The position numbers were made by a program, and so were the translations under genes. Under the pieces are notes generated by a model. It made no database searches. It worked only from the letters and a program-made list of their open reading frames with translations, and was not told the origin of the DNA. A stretch of DNA of 64,000 nt, taken from Paludibacteraceae bacterium. Its GTDB lineage: Bacteria > Bacteroidota > Bacteroidia > Bacteroidales > Paludibacteraceae. Location of the stretch: NCBI GenBank assembly GCA_045590995.1, contig JAZNRY010000101.1, positions 5,823 through 69,822 on the forward strand, in the 5' to 3' direction. Below, in pieces: positions 9,099 through 61,237 of this stretch (position 1 is the first letter of the stretch; each line of letters starts with the position of its first letter).

Positions 9099-9173
9099 CA
9101 CCGTGTTTTTCATGGTATTAGATTTAAGGTTAAGTAAAGATTGGGTTGTCGGGATGACAATCCTTCTTTTTTT
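9099..9173 (+). ncRNA. candidate short RNA (promoter to first terminator)
   Basis: A consensus promoter is followed about 50 nt later by a strong hairpin plus T-run. The alternative reading is a 32-aa hydrophobic peptide at 9112-9210. Confidence 0.3.
9143..9173 (+). terminator. intrinsic terminator after the orphan promoter
   Basis: GGGTTGTC-gggat-GACAATCC followed by TTCTTTTTTT. Confidence 0.5.
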
Positions 9174-9285
9174 ATGTATATCCATCCTTTCGGACTTTGG
9201 CCTCGCATAAAATGATCAGGTGTACCTTCGAGGACACCTTACCCTCGAAACTACGGTCGCATTATGAAGCCCATGTGCTACAAAA

Positions 9286-26295: not shown

Positions 26296-26373
26296 AGCTA
26301 CTGGTATTGAAAAACAACTTTGGATTTTTTGTATTAACAACAACTTAATTAAAAAAAACAACTCAAACAACTT

Positions 26374-26399
26374 GCGCGGCAATCAACTTCCTGCCGCGC
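26374..26399. repeat. GC-hairpin repeat (REP-like), copy a
   Basis: GCGCGGCA-atcaacttcc-TGCCGCGC, preceded by AACAACTCAAACAAC. Confidence 0.75.
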
Positions 26400-26425
26400 T
26401 AAGGAATTATTTTTAGGTATGTTAG

Positions 26426-26848
26426 TTACTCGAATATATTTCCATTGTAAGTTAGTATCTCATTGATAGTTGGGTCGTAGAAATACCTTTCGATTTCAAT
26501 ATTTTTTGGTGCAAAGTTAACCAATACGCCAGATTTCACTTTGGTTAATCGCATATAATTAAATAATTGAGCACGATGCTCGGTATGTAGTTTCTCTACT
26601 GCTTTACACTCTATAATGTCTAAATCATGGTATATAAAATCCAATCGGTATGTCGCATTTAATTGTTTACCTCGATAGATTGGATGAAAAGTTTTTTCTC
26701 TCTCAAAAGAAAGCCCCTCTTCTGCTAACTCCAAACCCAATGCCTCTTGATATACATATTCATTCAATCCAGGTCCAAGTTCTTCATGTACCTTATAAAT
26801 AGCCCCTACAATCAAGTAGAGTAAATCTTTGAGTATATCTAATTTCAT
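26426..26848 (-). CDS. GxxExxY family protein (PD-(D/E)XK-like small protein)
   Basis: Trimmed to MKLDIL (ATG 26848). Literal signature G-L-N-E-Y-V-Y in ELGPGLNEYVYQEAL. The later DFIYHDLDIIECK is nuclease-core-like. Confidence 0.75.
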   Translation of the reverse strand: MKLDILKDLLYLIVGAIYKVHEELGPGLNEYVYQEALGLELAEEGLSFEREKTFHPIYRGKQLNATYRLDFIYHDLDIIECKAVEKLHTEHRAQLFNYMRLTKVKSGVLVNFAPKNIEIERYFYDPTINEILTYNGNIFE

Positions 26849-26859
26849 CTTATTCTTGA

Positions 26860-26885
26860 GCGCGCAAGGAAGTTGATTTGCGCGC
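26860..26885. repeat. GC-hairpin repeat, copy b (inverted relative to a)
   Basis: Reverse complement reads AACAACATAAACAAA-TTGCGCGCAA-atcaacttcc-TTGCGCGC. Confidence 0.75.
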
Positions 26886-26905
26886 AATTTGTTTATGTTG
26901 TTTTC

Positions 26906-28714
26906 TTAATCCGAAGCAACAATGTCTTGTACCATCATTTGGATGGTGGTATAATGGTTGAAGGTGTTTTCGTTGAGTTCGTAGCAGATGTCCACGGCAT
27001 TGCCGTTTTGAATATACTCTGCCATATCGGCACGCCCGAAGGCGATGCCTGTGATAGCGCTCATGCGGTCGGTGACATCCAATCGCAAATGCTCACGCTC
27101 TTTGCCCACAGCGCGCGTGTCGCGGTGATTGATCAGTCGGCGCGATACAAACAGCGGGCGCGGATTACCTGGACCAAAAGGTTCTAAGTGACGCAGCACA
27201 TTGTAGAAGGACTTGGTAATATCGCCCAACTGCAACTCTGCCTCAATATCCAATGTGGGTTGCAACTGATTCGGTTGTATATGCGCTGCCACATACGCTT
27301 CAAAGCGTTGCTTAAACTCTTGTAAATCATCAATATGCATGCTCAGTCCAGCCGCATATTTATGTCCGCCAAAGTTAGTGAGCAAGTCATGGCACGAATC
27401 AATAGCAGCATAGATATCAAATCCTCCTACCGAACGAGCCGAGCCTGAGATGATACCATCCTCGCCTGCGGTGAGAACGATAGTAGGACGGTAGTAGGTT
27501 TCTGTGAGGCGTGATGCGACAATACCCACAACGCCTTTGTGCCAATGAGGGGCATAGACTACGGTCGAATGGCGGTTAGCGAAGGCGGGGTCGTCTTGCA
27601 ATTGCAGCAATGCCTCTTTGGTGGTTTCTGTGTCGCAGTCGCGGCGGTCATCGTTGTGCTGATTGACTTCTTCTGCTTGTTGGCGTGCAAAAACAGGGTC
27701 GTCGGTCAGGAGCAGTTCTACGGCTGCGCGACCAGATTTCATGCGTCCACAAGCGTTGATGCGCGGCCCAATCTTATATACTAATTCATTGATTGTTATC
27801 TTCTTTGCCTCAATACCTGCCACTTGCATGATTGCCGATAAACCCGTGAAAGGTTGGGTGTTGAGTTGCTGAATACCGAAGTGCGCCAAGATTCGGTTTT
27901 CGCCTGTGATAGGCACGATATCCGAGGCAATGGACATAGCGAGCAACTGCAATAGTGGCAGAAGCCTCTCGCCTGATAGCCTAATAGCCTCATTGCCTTT
28001 CGCTTCAATTAAGTATCTTTGGGTATATGCTTGCGCCAGTTTGAAACCGACTCCGCAGCCTGAAAGGTCTTTGTATGGGTATGGGCAATCGCTGCGCTTC
28101 ATATTCAGCACTGCTACAGCATTGGGTAATTCGTCGCCAGGGGTATGGTGGTCGCAGACAATGACATCAATGCCTTTACTATTGGCGTAGGCGATTTTCT
28201 CAACGGCTTTGATACCGCAGTCAAGCGTGATAATCAGACTACATCCTTGCGCTACTGCGTAGTCTATACCTTGCGTGGATACGCCATAACCCTCGGTATA
28301 TCTATCGGGAATATAGTAGTCGATGTTGGACGGCGTTCCGCCTATTGGGTATTGGACGCCCTGCGGGCTATTGGCTATTTGACCATTATCCATTATCCCC
28401 TCCAAAAACCGATACATCAGTGCCACAGCAGTGGTGCCGTCCACATCATAGTCGCCGTAGATGAGGATTTTCTCGCCTCGTGTGATGGCTTGGTGCAGAC
28501 GCTCTACGGCTTTGTCCATGTCCTTCATGAGGAACGGATCATGCAGATTGTCCAGCGATGGGCGCACAAAAGCGCGTGCCTCATCAGCGGTCTGTATGCC
28601 ACGCACGACCAACATACGCGCGGCAGCGGAACTGATGTTCAGTTCGCGCTCCAACTGCTGTTGCACCTCCTGTTCCACCGCAGTCAAATGCCGTATGTTC
28701 CATTGGTAGGTCAT
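26906..28714 (-). CDS. recJ: single-stranded-DNA-specific exonuclease RecJ
   Basis: IYGDYDVDGTT, ITLDCG, VCDHH, and DHHA1 motif GGHKYAAG. It carries an in-frame repeat insert at 28325-28382. Confidence 0.95.
   Translation of the reverse strand: MTYQWNIRHLTAVEQEVQQQLERELNISSAAARMLVVRGIQTADEARAFVRPSLDNLHDPFLMKDMDKAVERLHQAITRGEKILIYGDYDVDGTTAVALMYRFLEGIMDNGQIANSPQGVQYPIGGTPSNIDYYIPDRYTEGYGVSTQGIDYAVAQGCSLIITLDCGIKAVEKIAYANSKGIDVIVCDHHTPGDELPNAVAVLNMKRSDCPYPYKDLSGCGVGFKLAQAYTQRYLIEAKGNEAIRLSGERLLPLLQLLAMSIASDIVPITGENRILAHFGIQQLNTQPFTGLSAIMQVAGIEAKKITINELVYKIGPRINACGRMKSGRAAVELLLTDDPVFARQQAEEVNQHNDDRRDCDTETTKEALLQLQDDPAFANRHSTVVYAPHWHKGVVGIVASRLTETYYRPTIVLTAGEDGIISGSARSVGGFDIYAAIDSCHDLLTNFGGHKYAAGLSMHIDDLQEFKQRFEAYVAAHIQPNQLQPTLDIEAELQLGDITKSFYNVLRHLEPFGPGNPRPLFVSRRLINHRDTRAVGKEREHLRLDVTDRMSAITGIAFGRADMAEYIQNGNAVDICYELNENTFNHYTTIQMMVQDIVASD
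28325..28382 (-). repeat. in-frame palindromic-unit repeat element (copy in recJ)
   Basis: TTGGACGGCGTTCCGCCTATTGGGTATTGGACGCCCTGCGGGCTATTGG. Translated as ANSPQGVQYPIGGTPSN. Confidence 0.8.
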
Positions 28715-29279: not shown

Positions 29280-29470
29280 CAGCGTGATTGAAAATGGGGG
29301 GTACGCTGTATATACATGGTGCAGGGACAAGGATACATAAAACAATAGCCTCCTTGCGCAGAGCGCAGAAATCTAAACTATCTAAACTAAAACGGGGATA
29401 TGATTAACAACAACACAAACAACAAGAATTATTTAAATCAACAACTTAAACAACATAAATCAACAACATT

Positions 29471-29496
29471 GCGCGGCAATCAACTCCCTGCCGCGC
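29471..29496. repeat. GC-hairpin repeat, copy c
   Basis: AACAACTTAAACAACATAAATCAACAACATT-GCGCGGCA-atcaactccc-TGCCGCGC. Confidence 0.75.
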
Positions 29497-29612
29497 TCAA
29501 GGAACAACACGAAGTTTCAACTGGTATATAAATCCATAAAAAAATAGTAATGTGCGTACCTATTGAGAGGTACACCTTAATATAATAAATAATCTAAACT
29601 AAAACAGTTTTC

Positions 29613-30899
29613 ATGATGAACCAATCTAATTTGATTGCAGAGAAGCAAGACCTTCTCATCACCCCTCACTTGACTGAGGGGCAGTTACCAACCCTACTTG
29701 AGCAGGCCCTCTCCGTCGCACCCGTTGGTGAGACACGCGACATGCTGTTGCTCTCCTTATTGACCAACTGTGGCTACGCCGTGCCTGCCATGCGTATGCT
29801 CCACGGTCGCCCTCACCACACCTACAGCCCCGAGCTACTGACCATGATTGTCGCCCCTGCCGCATCGGGCAAAGGTATCATGAACTATGGACGCCTGCTC
29901 CTGCAAGCAATCGAGGGTTGCAACGGCAAACAAGTGTATATCCCTGCCAACTCGTCCGCCTCAGCCCTCATTAAGGTCATGGACGAGTACGACGGACGCG
30001 GTATTGTCTTTGCCACAGAGATGGACACCCTCACCCAGACACTCCGTGCCGCCTACGGTAAGTTTGGTGACCTTGTTCGCTGTATCTTTGAACACGAGAC
30101 CGTTAGCCAACTCCGCCGCCAAAACAACGAGTTCATCGAGATTCGCAATCCGCGTATTGCTATGCTCCTGTCGGGTACGCCCAACCAAGTAGCACCATTG
30201 CTCCGCAACCGTGAGAATGGACTGATGTCCCGCTTTGGCTGCTATGTGGTCAATAGCCGCATGGACTTTGATGACCATGTGTGGGACATAGAGGAAGAGG
30301 GCAATATGCCGAGCGAAGCCGTACTCTATGACCGCCTTGCGACGGAACTCGGCGACCGTTACCTGTGGATGGAGACGGCAGGGCATGCGTGTTACTTCTA
30401 CCTCACGGATGCACAGCTCAAGACCATCAAGCGTATGTTCCGCAGTGAATACGACACCTATAGCGCAGAGTTTGGCGACTTGTTCGATGCCTCGCTCAAG
30501 CGTATGCCTGTGATTATGAAGCGCATTGGTATGATTCTGACGGGCTTGCGTTTGGATATGACCAAGCCATTGCCTGAGCGCGTGGTTTGCTCGGAGGAAG
30601 ATTTTCAGACCATGCTCTTGATTGGTCACAAACTGCTGATGCACGCCGCGATGGTCTTCCAAATGATGCCTGAGTTGAAAGCTACGCCTGTAGGTGAGAT
30701 AGGGGGCAATATGTTGCAAAAGCAGTTCTTCCAAATGCTTCCCACGGACTTTACGAAACAGGAGGCGGTGAAGCAAGCCGAAGTCCTTGGAGTGGCATTG
30801 AGCACAATGGAAAGATGGATAACAAAATCCGTACAAACTGCTCACATAGAAAGACTTGCAACAGGTTTGTACAGAAAGAAACCCTCATGTATTGCGTAG
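29613..30899 (+). CDS. DUF3987/VirE-like P-loop protein (mobile-element or phage-satellite type)
   Basis: LLTMIVAPAASGKG Walker-A-like motif, then IVFATEMDTL (Walker-B-like). The overall layout matches what I recall of Bacteroidota DUF3987 proteins. Sampled 60-nt stretches are 52-60% GC, against 37-45% in sampled neighbours. Confidence 0.55.
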   Translation: MMNQSNLIAEKQDLLITPHLTEGQLPTLLEQALSVAPVGETRDMLLLSLLTNCGYAVPAMRMLHGRPHHTYSPELLTMIVAPAASGKGIMNYGRLLLQAIEGCNGKQVYIPANSSASALIKVMDEYDGRGIVFATEMDTLTQTLRAAYGKFGDLVRCIFEHETVSQLRRQNNEFIEIRNPRIAMLLSGTPNQVAPLLRNRENGLMSRFGCYVVNSRMDFDDHVWDIEEEGNMPSEAVLYDRLATELGDRYLWMETAGHACYFYLTDAQLKTIKRMFRSEYDTYSAEFGDLFDASLKRMPVIMKRIGMILTGLRLDMTKPLPERVVCSEEDFQTMLLIGHKLLMHAAMVFQMMPELKATPVGEIGGNMLQKQFFQMLPTDFTKQEAVKQAEVLGVALSTMERWITKSVQTAHIERLATGLYRKKPSCIA

Positions 30900-30965
30900 T
30901 GAGGGGAATGAGGGAGTGAGGGAAATACACCCCTCACTTCCCTCACTCCCTCACTTCCCTCATTC
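30899..30965 (+). terminator. long imperfect hairpin made of inverted 8-mer arrays, after the DUF3987-like gene
   Basis: GTGAGGGGAATGAGGGAGTGAGGGAA-atacac-CCCTCACTTCCCTCACTCCCTCACTTCCCTCATTC. Confidence 0.45.
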
Positions 30966-31042
30966 TATATTTTAATAGAATAGATGCGATAGATATGATA
31001 GGATATAGATGTGCTACGGAAGGGATAGTGATGTCTTCTTAT

Positions 31043-31075
31043 GAACCCGTCAAGAACCCGTCATGAACCCGTAAT
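31043..31075. repeat. 11-bp-period array
   Basis: GAACCCGTCAA, GAACCCGTCAT, GAACCCGTAAT. Confidence 0.8.
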
Positions 31076-31097: not shown

Positions 31098-31389
31098 CTA
31101 CCAAAATTATAAACAATTATAGTATATTAACCAAAATTATTTGGGAACTATATACATGTTGACACTTTATATCTCCTTGCCCTGCGGGCAGAAATCTAAA
31201 TAAATCTTTTTGCCACGCTATAGCCACGCTTTTACGAGGTACTCCGTAATATATTACCACCGTCTCCTCACATCGCCTTGAGCGATGCTCGTGCGACTAA
31301 ATCTTAAGTAAATGTGGCATGAATAACACGAAGTGTCAACTGATATATAAGTCCCAATTATTTTATTAACAACTTAAACAACATAAACG
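31098..31389 (+). ncRNA. conserved noncoding leader block, copy A (candidate structured RNA or cis element)
   Basis: 31160-31268 matches the reverse complement of 60217-60325 with about 6 mismatches in 109 nt. 31276-31356 matches 60036-60116 at roughly 85%. No ORF of 60 aa or more on either strand. Confidence 0.4.
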
Positions 31390-59154: not shown

Positions 59155-59496
59155 TTATTTCTTCGGATACAGCAATCGGAACACGAAGGTGCGCAACGAA
59201 GCGCATGGTTGTTTCTTTCGTTTGCGTGATTCGGTTATGTGTTTGCGGAAAAGCTGTTCGTATTCAGCGCGTTGTGTAGGGTCAGCCAACTGCGAGTCCA
59301 CCTCTTTCCATGTGTCACGAAAGCGTGCTTGCGCTTGTTGTTGTGCCTCGGTGGGGGTGTCCACGCGATTGGGGTACTCCATGCCTATGCCGTATAATTG
59401 TCCTGTGTGTTTGTTTGCACGGATATAAATGCGCTCATTACGGATGAACTTGCCCGTTATTGAGGCAAATGGGGAAGATGGTGTAATTTTTGACAT
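59155..59496 (-). CDS. small basic protein, paralogue family member P3
   Basis: Start moved to MSKITPSSPFASITGKF (ATG 59496). This aligns with P2 MAKILLDAPIAAVAGSI, and the ATG at 59523 abuts a GC hairpin. 113 aa. Confidence 0.55.
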   Translation of the reverse strand: MSKITPSSPFASITGKFIRNERIYIRANKHTGQLYGIGMEYPNRVDTPTEAQQQAQARFRDTWKEVDSQLADPTQRAEYEQLFRKHITESRKRKKQPCASLRTFVFRLLYPKK

Positions 59497-59525
59497 AAGA
59501 TGATTATTACTAATATTTCCCATGA

Positions 59526-59550
59526 GCGCGCAATGTGTTGTTTTGCGCGC
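59526..59550. repeat. GC-hairpin repeat, copy g (between P2 and P3)
   Basis: GCGCGCAA-tgtgttgtt-TTGCGCGC, then AAGTTGTTTAAGTTGTT. Confidence 0.7.
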
Positions 59551-59604
59551 AAATGTTGTTGGATTAAGTTGTTTAAGTTGTTGATTAAAATAATTCTTTT
59601 TGTT

Positions 59605-59997
59605 TTATTCCTGCTCTTTCGCTTGGGTGTGTAGGGTGTGGAATATATACCCGTATAGTGTCCTAATGACGGACTTTCGGCGCGATGAATAGGGCAAATA
59701 GTCGTTTGATGAAGCGGAGCGTTTGTACGATGGATTATGTTTCTTCGTGTATGCAGCAAACTCTTTTTCCCATTTTGTGCGTTTTGCTGGGTCTGCCATT
59801 TCGGCGTGTACTTGTTTAGAAATCTCGCCGAACAGTGATGAGTTGCGTTTTTGTGTTTCCGATGGGGGTTGCTCATTGGGGTGCATGACTATATAGGCAT
59901 GGGTACGACCATTGCGCATACGATAAACCACTTGTTGGTGTTTGGATATCGAACCAGCCACCGCTGCTATAGGAGCATCAAGAAGAATTTTTGCCAT
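59605..59997 (-). CDS. small basic protein, paralogue family member P2
   Basis: 130 aa. MAKILLDAPIAAVAGSISKHQQVVYRMRNG...PSETQKRNSSLFGEISKQVHAEMADPAKRTKWEKEF...VIRTLYGYIF. Preceded by a ~420-nt conserved leader. Confidence 0.6.
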   Translation of the reverse strand: MAKILLDAPIAAVAGSISKHQQVVYRMRNGRTHAYIVMHPNEQPPSETQKRNSSLFGEISKQVHAEMADPAKRTKWEKEFAAYTKKHNPSYKRSASSNDYLPYSSRRKSVIRTLYGYIFHTLHTQAKEQE

Positions 59998-59999
59998 AA

Positions 60000-60416
60000 T
60001 TGTTTATATTGTTGTTTATAGTTTGCTTTTAGTTTTGGGATTTATATACTTGTTGACCCTTTGTGTTATTCCCGCCACATTTACTGAAGATTTAGTCGTA
60101 CGATCATCGCTCAAGGTCTATCGGGGTCCCCGAAAATTTTTAATTTTTGGGGAGAGGAGAAATGGCGGCAAGCCAAACTCGCACGCGAGTTTCATCTTGC
60201 AAGCCCATTTCGACGAAGGAGACGGTGGTAATATATTACGGAGTACCTCGTAAAAGCGCGGCTTAAGTGTGGCAAAAAGATTTATTTAGATTTCTGCCCG
60301 CAGGGCAAGGAGATATTCAGTGTCACCATGCCTAATAATTCGCTTCATTCGCCGTTCCAAATAAATAATTTTGGTTAATCTTCTATAATTTTGGTAGCGC
60401 AAATCACTTTCGCCTG
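60000..60416 (-). ncRNA. conserved noncoding leader block, copy B, with a 100-nt structured insert
   Basis: Begins right after the consensus promoter at 60417-60448. Homologous to copy A, except that 60117-60216 replaces 7 nt of copy A. Confidence 0.4.
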
Positions 60417-60448
60417 CAAAGGTACTAAAATTCACGGACATCACCAAA
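60417..60448 (-). promoter_or_regulatory. promoter of conserved leader B and the P2-P3 genes
   Basis: Reverse-strand TACCTTTG at 60417-60424 and TTTG at 60445-60448. Confidence 0.55.
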
Positions 60449-60943: not shown

Positions 60944-60957
60944 TTCTTTATCCCTTG

Positions 60958-60983
60958 CCGCGGCAGGGAGTTGATTGCCGCGG
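60958..60983. repeat. GC-hairpin repeat, copy d
   Basis: CCGCGGCA-gggagttgat-TGCCGCGG. The reverse complement has the same loop as copy c. Confidence 0.7.
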
Positions 60984-61237
60984 AATGTTGTCTATGTTGT
61001 CTTCTTAACCAACGGCACTCCTTGTCTCCGTGTCCATCCGTGCCATCCGTGGGATGTTATATCTCCTTGCCGCAGATCATTGTTGGCGAATCGGAAGAGT
61101 TGTCTATGTTGTCTTCTTAACCACCCGATTCCTTGTCTCCGTGTCCATCCGTGTCATCCGTGGGCGGTTATATCTCCTTGCCGCAGATCATTGTTGGCGA
61201 ATCGGGAATGTTGTCTATGTCGTCTTCCAAAAACTTA
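60983..61237. repeat. tandem repeat, ~111-112 bp unit, about 2.2 copies
   Basis: TTGTCTATG starts at 60988, 61100 and 61211. Each unit contains CCATCCGTG subrepeats and ATATCTCCTTGCCGCAGATC. Confidence 0.85.

Follow-up and report, generated by a model that had tools for sequence, protein, structure and literature searches.

The window analysed here, a 64,000-nucleotide stretch of a contig from a Paludibacteraceae bacterium (JAZNRY010000101.1, positions 5,823 to 69,822 of the forward strand; assembly GCA_045590995.1), carries three short open reading frames (ORFs), P1, P2 and P3, for small basic proteins. P2 (59605-59997, minus strand; 130 aa, isoelectric point (pI) 9.9) is the first gene of a pair, the second gene of which is its paralogue P3 (59155-59496, minus strand; 113 aa, pI 10.2). 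P1 (31390-31731, plus strand; 113 aa, pI 9.9), which sequence profiles place in the same superfamily as a distant member, follows the gene of a 428-aa DUF3987 P-loop protein (29613-30899, plus strand). A reading of the sequence alone had proposed that the three ORFs form one diverged family of lysine- and arginine-rich proteins and that, together with a shared leader, they belong to a single uncharacterised, possibly mobile-element-derived system. The coordinates, the lengths and the N-terminal, central and C-terminal strings given by this sequence-only reading were all found as described, as was the composition (21–22 Lys plus Arg versus 10–11 Asp plus Glu per protein, pI 9.9–10.2). An alternative P3 start, the upstream ATG at 59523, would give a protein of 122 aa and is probably not used. 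We favour the 113-aa form starting at 59496 because the P3 orthologues of three related loci (L020, L022 and L028) begin 3 nt past the P2 stop codon and because this form has the family N-terminus.

P2 and P3 aligned end to end with 29% identity (BLASTP, E = 1e-12), and the profiles of their families matched with 98.1% probability (hhalign, E = 6.5e-14). Pairwise comparison of P1 with P2 or P3 detected no relationship (E = 2.4 or no alignment). At the family level, the P2 profile matched that of P1 at 88% (E = 2.9e-6) across the first 82 columns, and the match between the P3 and P1 families was confined to the first 19 residues (both hhalign). In addition to the profiles from the homologue sets of individual proteins (A1, A2 and A3), a combined P2 plus P3 profile (A5) was used for an exhaustive search, which yielded 364 clusters at 50% identity with E ≤ 1e-3, 63 of them with E ≤ 1e-10. 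A profile of 80 remote members found with A5, termed A7, matched the P1 family at 97.7% over 107 columns (hhalign, E = 2.3e-12), taking in the C-terminal TLRGF/SIRGYF patch. Run as a hidden Markov model (HMM) against all ORFs of the window, A7 picked out exactly P2 (E = 1e-40), P3 (1e-31) and P1 (7e-9). The conserved columns of the superfamily are an N-terminal M-[AS]-K...P...G-K, a helix start P-x-[ST]-x-x-[QE] and the C-terminal patch [TS]-[LI]-R-[GT]-[FY]; the motifs on which the family had first been proposed are these columns. Since P2 and P3 match directly and P1 joins them through profiles over its full length, the three are, judged by these alignments, paralogues of one superfamily, and the doubt that they might be unrelated is removed.

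Database homologues, down to ~54% identity, numbered 44 for P2, 32 for P3 and 48 for P1. Compared with orthologues (Nei-Gojobori, dS 0.6–0.8), the ratio of nonsynonymous to synonymous substitution rates (dN/dS) was 0.04–0.17 for P2 and 0.04–0.09 for P3, and the alignment of the P1 family contains 26 invariant columns. P1, P2 and P3 are genuine protein-coding genes, as follows from the 32–48 homologues of each and the low dN/dS of P2 and P3. Read from these comparisons, each of the three is subject to purifying selection or else strongly conserved; the possibility that the ORFs were spurious and lacked conservation did not come true.

The superfamily comprises at least 364 clusters of proteins of ~100–135 aa from uncultured gut and rumen Bacteroidales. 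The closest genomic match was a contig (L017) of a Paludibacteraceae metagenome-assembled genome (MAG) from yak colon, with 99% identity. A scan of GTDB species representatives with the A1 profile found relatives at 129 loci, several per MAG, and in nearly every case the MAG was one of Paludibacteraceae or Bacteroidales recovered from the gut of ruminants or humans; a few bins with implausible names ('Azospirillum sp. CAG:239', 'Dialister', 'Mycobacteriaceae') came from a single project. Tandem pairs of a P2-type followed by a P3-type gene occurred in ~30 loci, and other arrays of members in L034, L067, L075 and L078. Right after family members in two of these arrays (L067, 941-1327; L078, 11579-11959) are ORFs of 126–128 aa that start with MA(K/H)V.W.AGID.VSGAL and look like even more diverged members below the detection of the HMMs used.

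Searches of Pfam, NCBIfam, PHROGs and PADLOC gave no match above noise to P1, P2 or P3, the 80 remote members had no common match in Pfam, and the PDB sequence search with A5 and A7 returned chance-level matches only. In the source databases the members are named 'hypothetical protein' only. There were no relatives of P1, P2 or P3 in IMG/VR, none of P2 among INPHARED phages and PLSDB plasmids, and none of a central family member in a plasmid collection; nothing in IMG/VR or PHROGs places P1, P2 and P3 in a phage, satellite or plasmid gene family. Candidate Rosetta-stone fusions (GNAT, methyltransferase and Flg_new_2) were each seen once, look like read-through gene calls and were set aside. 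The proteins were rightly called uncharacterised: they have no family model, no PDB sequence relative and, as described below, no Foldseek match. On these searches, the superfamily is large and without a database model, and the organisms that carry it are uncultured Bacteroidales of gut and rumen, namely Paludibacteraceae and relatives. No surprising mechanism is demonstrated; what stands is a sizeable annotation gap of hundreds of clusters, with several copies per genome under purifying selection in abundant uncultured Bacteroidales of ruminant and human gut.

The conserved leader that was thought to tie the proteins together proved to be of another nature. The upstream regions of P1 and P2 do share sequence (114 nt at 94% plus 82 nt at 87% identity), and to this extent the sequence-only reading stood; P3 has no such upstream sequence. 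An exact 22-mer from the shared part retrieved seven further metagenome contigs carrying the element, and the aligned copies define a non-coding element of 207–213 bp with 25-bp terminal inverted repeats (TIRs), GGGAACTATATACATGTTGACACTT and AAGTGTCAACTGATATATAAGTCCC, conserved in five full copies. The copy in the P1 5' region (31143-31355, plus strand, 213 bp), delimited from the sequence, the copy alignment and a TIR search, has GGGAACTATATACATGTTGACACTT at 31143-31167 paired with the reverse complement of 31331-31355, and it is flanked by an 8-bp target-site duplication (TSD), AATTATTT, at 31135-31142 and 31356-31363. An 8-bp duplication, AAAGAAAA, also stands on either side of the copy in L098. 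The P1 copy is present at 99.5% identity in L111 and L112, and the site is empty in L113 and L014. The second copy (60037-60330, minus strand) lies in the P2 5' untranslated region (UTR); its left TIR is truncated, it contains a nested insertion of ~100 nt, and it has no clean target duplication. The element segment at this site is wholly absent from other orthologous loci and from the conspecific L017, where P2 is 99% identical and ~330 nt of the 5' UTR are missing. The nested insertion (60117-60216, minus strand) has palindromes of its own, and a 34-nt piece of it recurs in L067. A third, chimeric copy (29307-29540, plus strand) in the 5' region of the DUF3987 gene is made up of a partial left TIR, a hairpin module (29350-29377), an inserted A/C-rich-plus-hairpin repeat (29403-29497) and the right TIR (29501-29540).

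Elsewhere, the element immediately precedes an alkaline-phosphatase-like gene in L102 and a lipoprotein-like gene in L103, and other copies were at gene 3' ends in antisense orientation (L097 and L100). From the TIRs, the target duplication, the dispersed copies and the filled versus empty sites, what P1 and P2 have in common upstream is a miniature inverted-repeat transposable element (MITE) and not a dedicated leader; in this lineage, AT-rich 5' UTRs have received insertions of the ~213-bp MITE and of other small hairpin repeats. The TIR search of the window found no autonomous transposase-encoding element with the same TIRs. The MITE folds as a rod-like hairpin with compensatory change in 3 of the 61 predicted pairs. 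With the Rfam covariance models, the leaders gave no family at gathering score and chance-level matches at a permissive E-value, so that the shared sequence corresponds to no known cis-regulatory RNA, riboswitch or ribosomal-protein leader. A universal leader for all members of the superfamily was considered and rejected: the upstream regions of remoter homologues do not align, and a ACCAAAAT motif was present in 8 of 114 dereplicated upstream regions. Near-identical "leaders" before unrelated-looking genes are here MITE insertions, and empty sites in related strains need checking before shared regulation is inferred from such sequences.

The element resembles bacterial MITEs such as the Correia elements of Neisseria, RUP/BOX and ERIC in being non-coding, ~210 bp long and bounded by 25-bp TIRs and a TSD, in folding as a long hairpin, in its dispersal through intergenic AT-rich DNA near gene starts, and in its presence/absence polymorphism and nested insertions. 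It differs from them in its unrelated sequence, in an 8-bp TSD (AATTATTT, AAAGAAAA) rather than TA, and in being locally enriched beside this protein family and DUF3987.

Outside the MITE, the native P2 5' region contains a predicted promoter of the Bacteroidetes type (60417-60448, minus strand), the established consensus of which is TTTG/TAnnTTTG. Read from the sequence, it consists of a -33 TTTG (60445-60448), ~20 nt and a -7 TACCTTTG (60417-60424), and it is conserved in P2 orthologues of other species. Two ACCAAAATTAT motifs lie in the native P2 5' UTR (60365-60395, minus strand) and a pair of the same motif lies upstream of P1 (31100-31140, plus strand). The exact motif occurs in the window at these four sites only, with 9 matches at ≤1 mismatch versus 2.2 expected. 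The motifs of the P1 and P2 pairs are spaced 20–30 nt; pairs with 30–33 nt between the motifs were present before P2 and P1 orthologues in a few related genomes and inverted in L014. Between P2 and P3 there is a 35-nt hairpin repeat, GCGCGCAA...TTGCGCGC (59518-59552, minus strand), with an identical copy after P3 (59082-59116). The hairpin is part of an inserted A/C-rich-plus-hairpin repeat, and the predicted RNA folds of the two copies have -15.5 kcal/mol (z -4.1) and -14.5 kcal/mol (z -3.7). The P2-P3 spacer in relatives ranges from 3 nt (L020, L022 and L028) to 218 nt (L025), with varying repeat variants. Given this variation in length and repeat content, the boundaries of the family genes are insertion hotspots.

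P2 and P3 lie upstream of tsaD and are co-oriented with it. The synteny is kept in many Paludibacteraceae, at times with an AraC-type gene in between, and spans species with saturated synonymous divergence, so that P2-P3 is a stable chromosomal locus. Given this and the negative searches of the viral, phage and plasmid collections, the suggested derivation of the system from a mobile element is not supported for the pair.

The DUF3987 gene before P1 was identified correctly (PF13148, E = 7.3e-37; 127.8 bits versus a cut-off of 27); its protein had no PADLOC match. The P1 orthologues always follow a DUF3987 gene of 427–428 aa in the four loci compared (the window, L014, L111 and L113). Since the flanking genes differ among these loci, DUF3987-P1 is a two-gene module that relocates, and the link of the P1 subfamily to DUF3987 is a stable one across differing chromosomal contexts. 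The link does not extend to every P1-like member: in L101 the upstream gene gave no DUF3987 match, and in L098 a VapE-like gene precedes the family member. Directly after the DUF3987 stop codon lies a very stable hairpin with GAGGGA repeats (30900-30962, plus strand; 25-nt arms, -46 kcal/mol, z -7.9), kept in L113, and after it are short GAACCCGTCA tandem repeats at ~31040-31075. Many metagenome contigs with P1-family genes end 70–530 nt upstream of the gene (L105-L108, L112 and L114), which fits assembly-fragmenting repeats such as MITEs, or multi-copy DUF3987 genes.

The P1 partner is a bona fide member of the DUF3987/VapE-like genes (D5-type primase-helicase C-terminal P-loop) of Bacteroidales islands and small phage-like contigs. 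Its distant homologues are found on unannotated faecal 'Bacteriophage sp.' contigs of 4–12 kb and in the canonical cluster of Bacteroides and Parabacteroides, which comprises BT4734-family, DUF3987, DUF4248, HU-family DNA-binding protein, smalltalk and amidase genes next to polysaccharide loci. The DUF3987 protein of the window is shorter (428 aa vs ~600 aa) and has none of the BT4734, DUF4248, HU and amidase companions; its partner comes from the new family. A literature search on DUF3987 and Bacteroides found nothing relevant. Around distant P2-type genes, SNF2 helicases (SWIM-SNF2 or PLD-SNF2) adjoin in 11 loci, a UvrD-type helicase and RhuM in L007-L010, and Fic, type I methylase and DUF1016 genes are further neighbours. 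In two loci, P1-like tandem pairs are preceded at a distance of ~2 kb by the gene of a second conserved small protein of 132–133 aa without a Pfam match (L034, 7706-8104; L075, 1922-2323), which is accompanied by DUF4417 and further small ORFs; this association may be a larger island.

AlphaFold2 (AF2) models of P2 (predicted local distance difference test (pLDDT) 78; strands within 3-38, helices 47-68, 70-87 and 114-129) and P1 (pLDDT 79; hairpin 24-37, helices 51-69, 75-88 and 97-112) agree in predicting N-terminal beta-hairpins (pLDDT 57–72) followed by a three-helix bundle (pLDDT ~90). The conserved Gly, Arg and Lys residues lie in the N-terminal hairpin region, and the (T/S)(L/I)RG(F/Y) patch on the last helix. 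Foldseek, which the sequence-only reading had suggested as a check, returned nothing at E ≤ 0.001 for either model against the PDB or for the P2 model against BFVD, in keeping with an uncharacterised family. The N-terminal region of lower confidence is modelled as if it needed a partner. It may be likened to the AbrB/MazE/SpoVT swapped-hairpin domain, which folds only as an interdigitated dimer: in both, two beta-hairpins with conserved Arg and Gly and a poor monomer model would precede a helical oligomerisation part. The new family differs in having no PF04014 match (in the three window proteins and the 80 remote members) and no Foldseek match.

We propose, tentatively and with more doubt than conviction, that P1, P2 and P3 are cytoplasmic nucleic-acid-binding proteins acting as homo- or heterodimers. 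The ligand would more likely be DNA than RNA; the neighbouring genes (DUF3987, VapE-like, SNF2 and UvrD helicases) hint at DNA transactions. The N-terminal hairpin region would become ordered upon dimerisation or binding, with the three-helix bundle as a scaffold. P2 and P3 may constitute a heteropair whose expression is driven by a single strong promoter of the Bacteroidetes type, and the P1 subfamily may work with the preceding DUF3987 P-loop (primase/helicase-like) protein. HU/IHF-type nucleoid-associated proteins offer a parallel in size (~100–160 aa), strong basicity, several paralogues per genome and paralogue pairs that suggest heterodimers; moreover, P1 and the Bacteroidales HU-family protein are both encoded downstream of DUF3987 and can adjoin polysaccharide genes. 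However, the new family has no sequence relation to them (Pfam PF00216 negative; hhalign probability 0.03–0.1% versus the HU-family proteins of L109 and L110), and the predicted order of beta-hairpins and then three helices differs from the helix-helix-beta-arm fold of HU. Taken as a whole, the best explanation is a real paralogous superfamily, dimers that would bind nucleic acid, and a MITE in the place of the "leader", and this combination we consider moderately probable.

Several points weigh against this explanation. No helix-turn-helix, ribbon-helix-helix, HU or AbrB signature is recognisable, the models have no structural neighbour, and the N-terminal region is modelled with a pLDDT of 57–72. 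Neighbours are heterogeneous (tsaD, grpE/dnaJ, SusC-like, Fic and glycosyltransferase genes), many members stand alone, and helicase adjacency may merely reflect variable genomic islands. The position of P1 downstream of DUF3987 is where Bacteroides and Parabacteroides have DUF4248 and then the HU-family protein, and homology of P1 to either was rejected, so that the argument from DUF3987 and HU is positional only, because hhalign against Bacteroidales HU-family and DUF4248 proteins was negative. Lastly, the three MITE-family copies of the window are like-oriented and occupy the 5' regions of DUF3987, P1 and P2, a pattern that purely random insertion does not predict; on this one point the evidence favours the sequence-only reading.

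A bolder version of the explanation seems unlikely to us. According to it, the members of the superfamily would be dimeric DNA-binding proteins of a new fold class, restricted to uncultured Bacteroidales of gut and rumen and serving as nucleoid-associated or regulatory partners of helicase- or primase-like ATPases (DUF3987/VapE, SNF2 and UvrD). Such proteins might also recognise the hairpin and MITE repeats around their own genes, explaining the local enrichment of these repeats. If DNA-binding partners of DUF3987/VapE-type ATPases were indeed what the family provides, this would shed light on the DUF3987 islands, which are widespread in Bacteroidales and so far lack an explanation.

The placement of the MITE copies raises the possibility, which we regard as an outside one, that co-option has turned the element into a regulatory module of 5' UTRs (promoter, or RNA stability or processing element, cf. 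Correia elements in Neisseria) that alters the expression of the downstream gene, including P1, P2 and DUF3987. All five gene-proximal copies (P1, P2, DUF3987, L102 and L103) have one orientation relative to the downstream gene, the MITE lies 10–25 nt downstream of a TAnnTTTG box in L102 and before DUF3987, and internal hairpins are kept by compensatory change (GCCC/GGGC versus GCGC/GCGC; GTTTCGC/GCGAAAC versus CATCGC/GCGATG). However, these points come from few copies, the L097 and L100 copies are antisense at gene 3' ends, and the covariation is weak. Besides co-option as a UTR module, the local enrichment could possibly arise from target preference for AATTATTT-type sequence in these UTRs or from recombination between leaders.

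It is decidedly improbable, in our view, that the proteins bind RNA or ribosomes, as post-transcriptional regulators or chaperones, and not DNA. Their small size and pI of ~10 would suit such a role, as would genes that stand alone behind strong promoters and A/C-rich leaders, and chromosomal synteny with the tRNA modification gene tsaD and with grpE/dnaJ. Bacteroidetes are not known to have Hfq or ProQ, hence RNA chaperones of an unknown kind are to be expected. Yet the family has no RNA-binding domain signature, its recurrent neighbours are DNA helicase- or primase-like genes, and multi-copy, fast-diverging paralogues are unusual among ribosome-associated factors.

The arrangement initially proposed, in which DUF3987, P1, P2 and P3 with a functional shared leader RNA would be one co-regulated, mobile-element-derived system, now deserves little credence. 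The three like-oriented MITE-family copies, the native ACCAAAATTAT motif pair common to P1 and P2, the shifting chromosomal context of the DUF3987-P1 module, and MITE-like fragments <50 nt from family genes in three protein-anchored loci (L025, L029 and L093) are what it would account for. It does not accommodate an element with TIRs and TSD, with a P2 site that is empty in a conspecific MAG and a P1 site that is empty in L113 and L014, which also precedes unrelated genes and is missing from P3. Nor does it fit the P2-P3 synteny beside tsaD in many species, the negative Rfam result, compensatory change in just 3 of 61 pairs, or the lack of an integrase, phage or plasmid link.

We hold it to be very improbable that the tandem pairs resemble toxin-antitoxin genes or belong to variable genomic islands as accessory genes for defence or anti-defence. 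The two-gene layout, and the SNF2/PLD helicase, type I methylase, Fic, RhuM and DUF1016 genes that adjoin some members, speak for it. Against this, the two genes of a pair are mutually homologous and both encode basic proteins, P1, P2 and P3 match no known anti-phage defence or toxin-antitoxin component in PADLOC or Pfam, P2-P3 is stably syntenic beside tsaD with dN/dS ~0.1, and many members lie among housekeeping genes. Finally, spurious ORFs with chance resemblance in A-rich repeat DNA, a notion invited by their position among repeats and the absence of any database function, are refuted by the 364 related clusters and the dN/dS values, to which the dozens of homologues with invariant columns and the confident helical-bundle models add.

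Other repeats of the window are related to those around the family genes. A PD-(D/E)XK gene (26426-26887, minus strand; PDDEXK_3, E = 4e-34), with a tdk-like gene on one side and a recJ-like gene on the other, is flanked by inverted copies, 56 nt each (26352-26407 and 26852-26907), of an A/C-rich-plus-GC-hairpin repeat and looks like an inserted cassette; the same repeat also occurs downstream of P2 and before the DUF3987 gene. At 61019-61227 (plus strand) there are two tandem copies of a 98-nt unit with a period of 111 nt and 93% identity, and near them GC-hairpin repeats (also 60950-60991) related to those at 26372-26407 and 29463-29495. The tandem and GC-hairpin repeats together occupy the space that separates the P2 promoter region from a tryptophanase-like gene. 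Away from the family genes, 9103-9176 (plus strand) matched the Bacteroidetes FopS small RNA family of Rfam (RF04319) with 77 bits versus a gathering score of 56.

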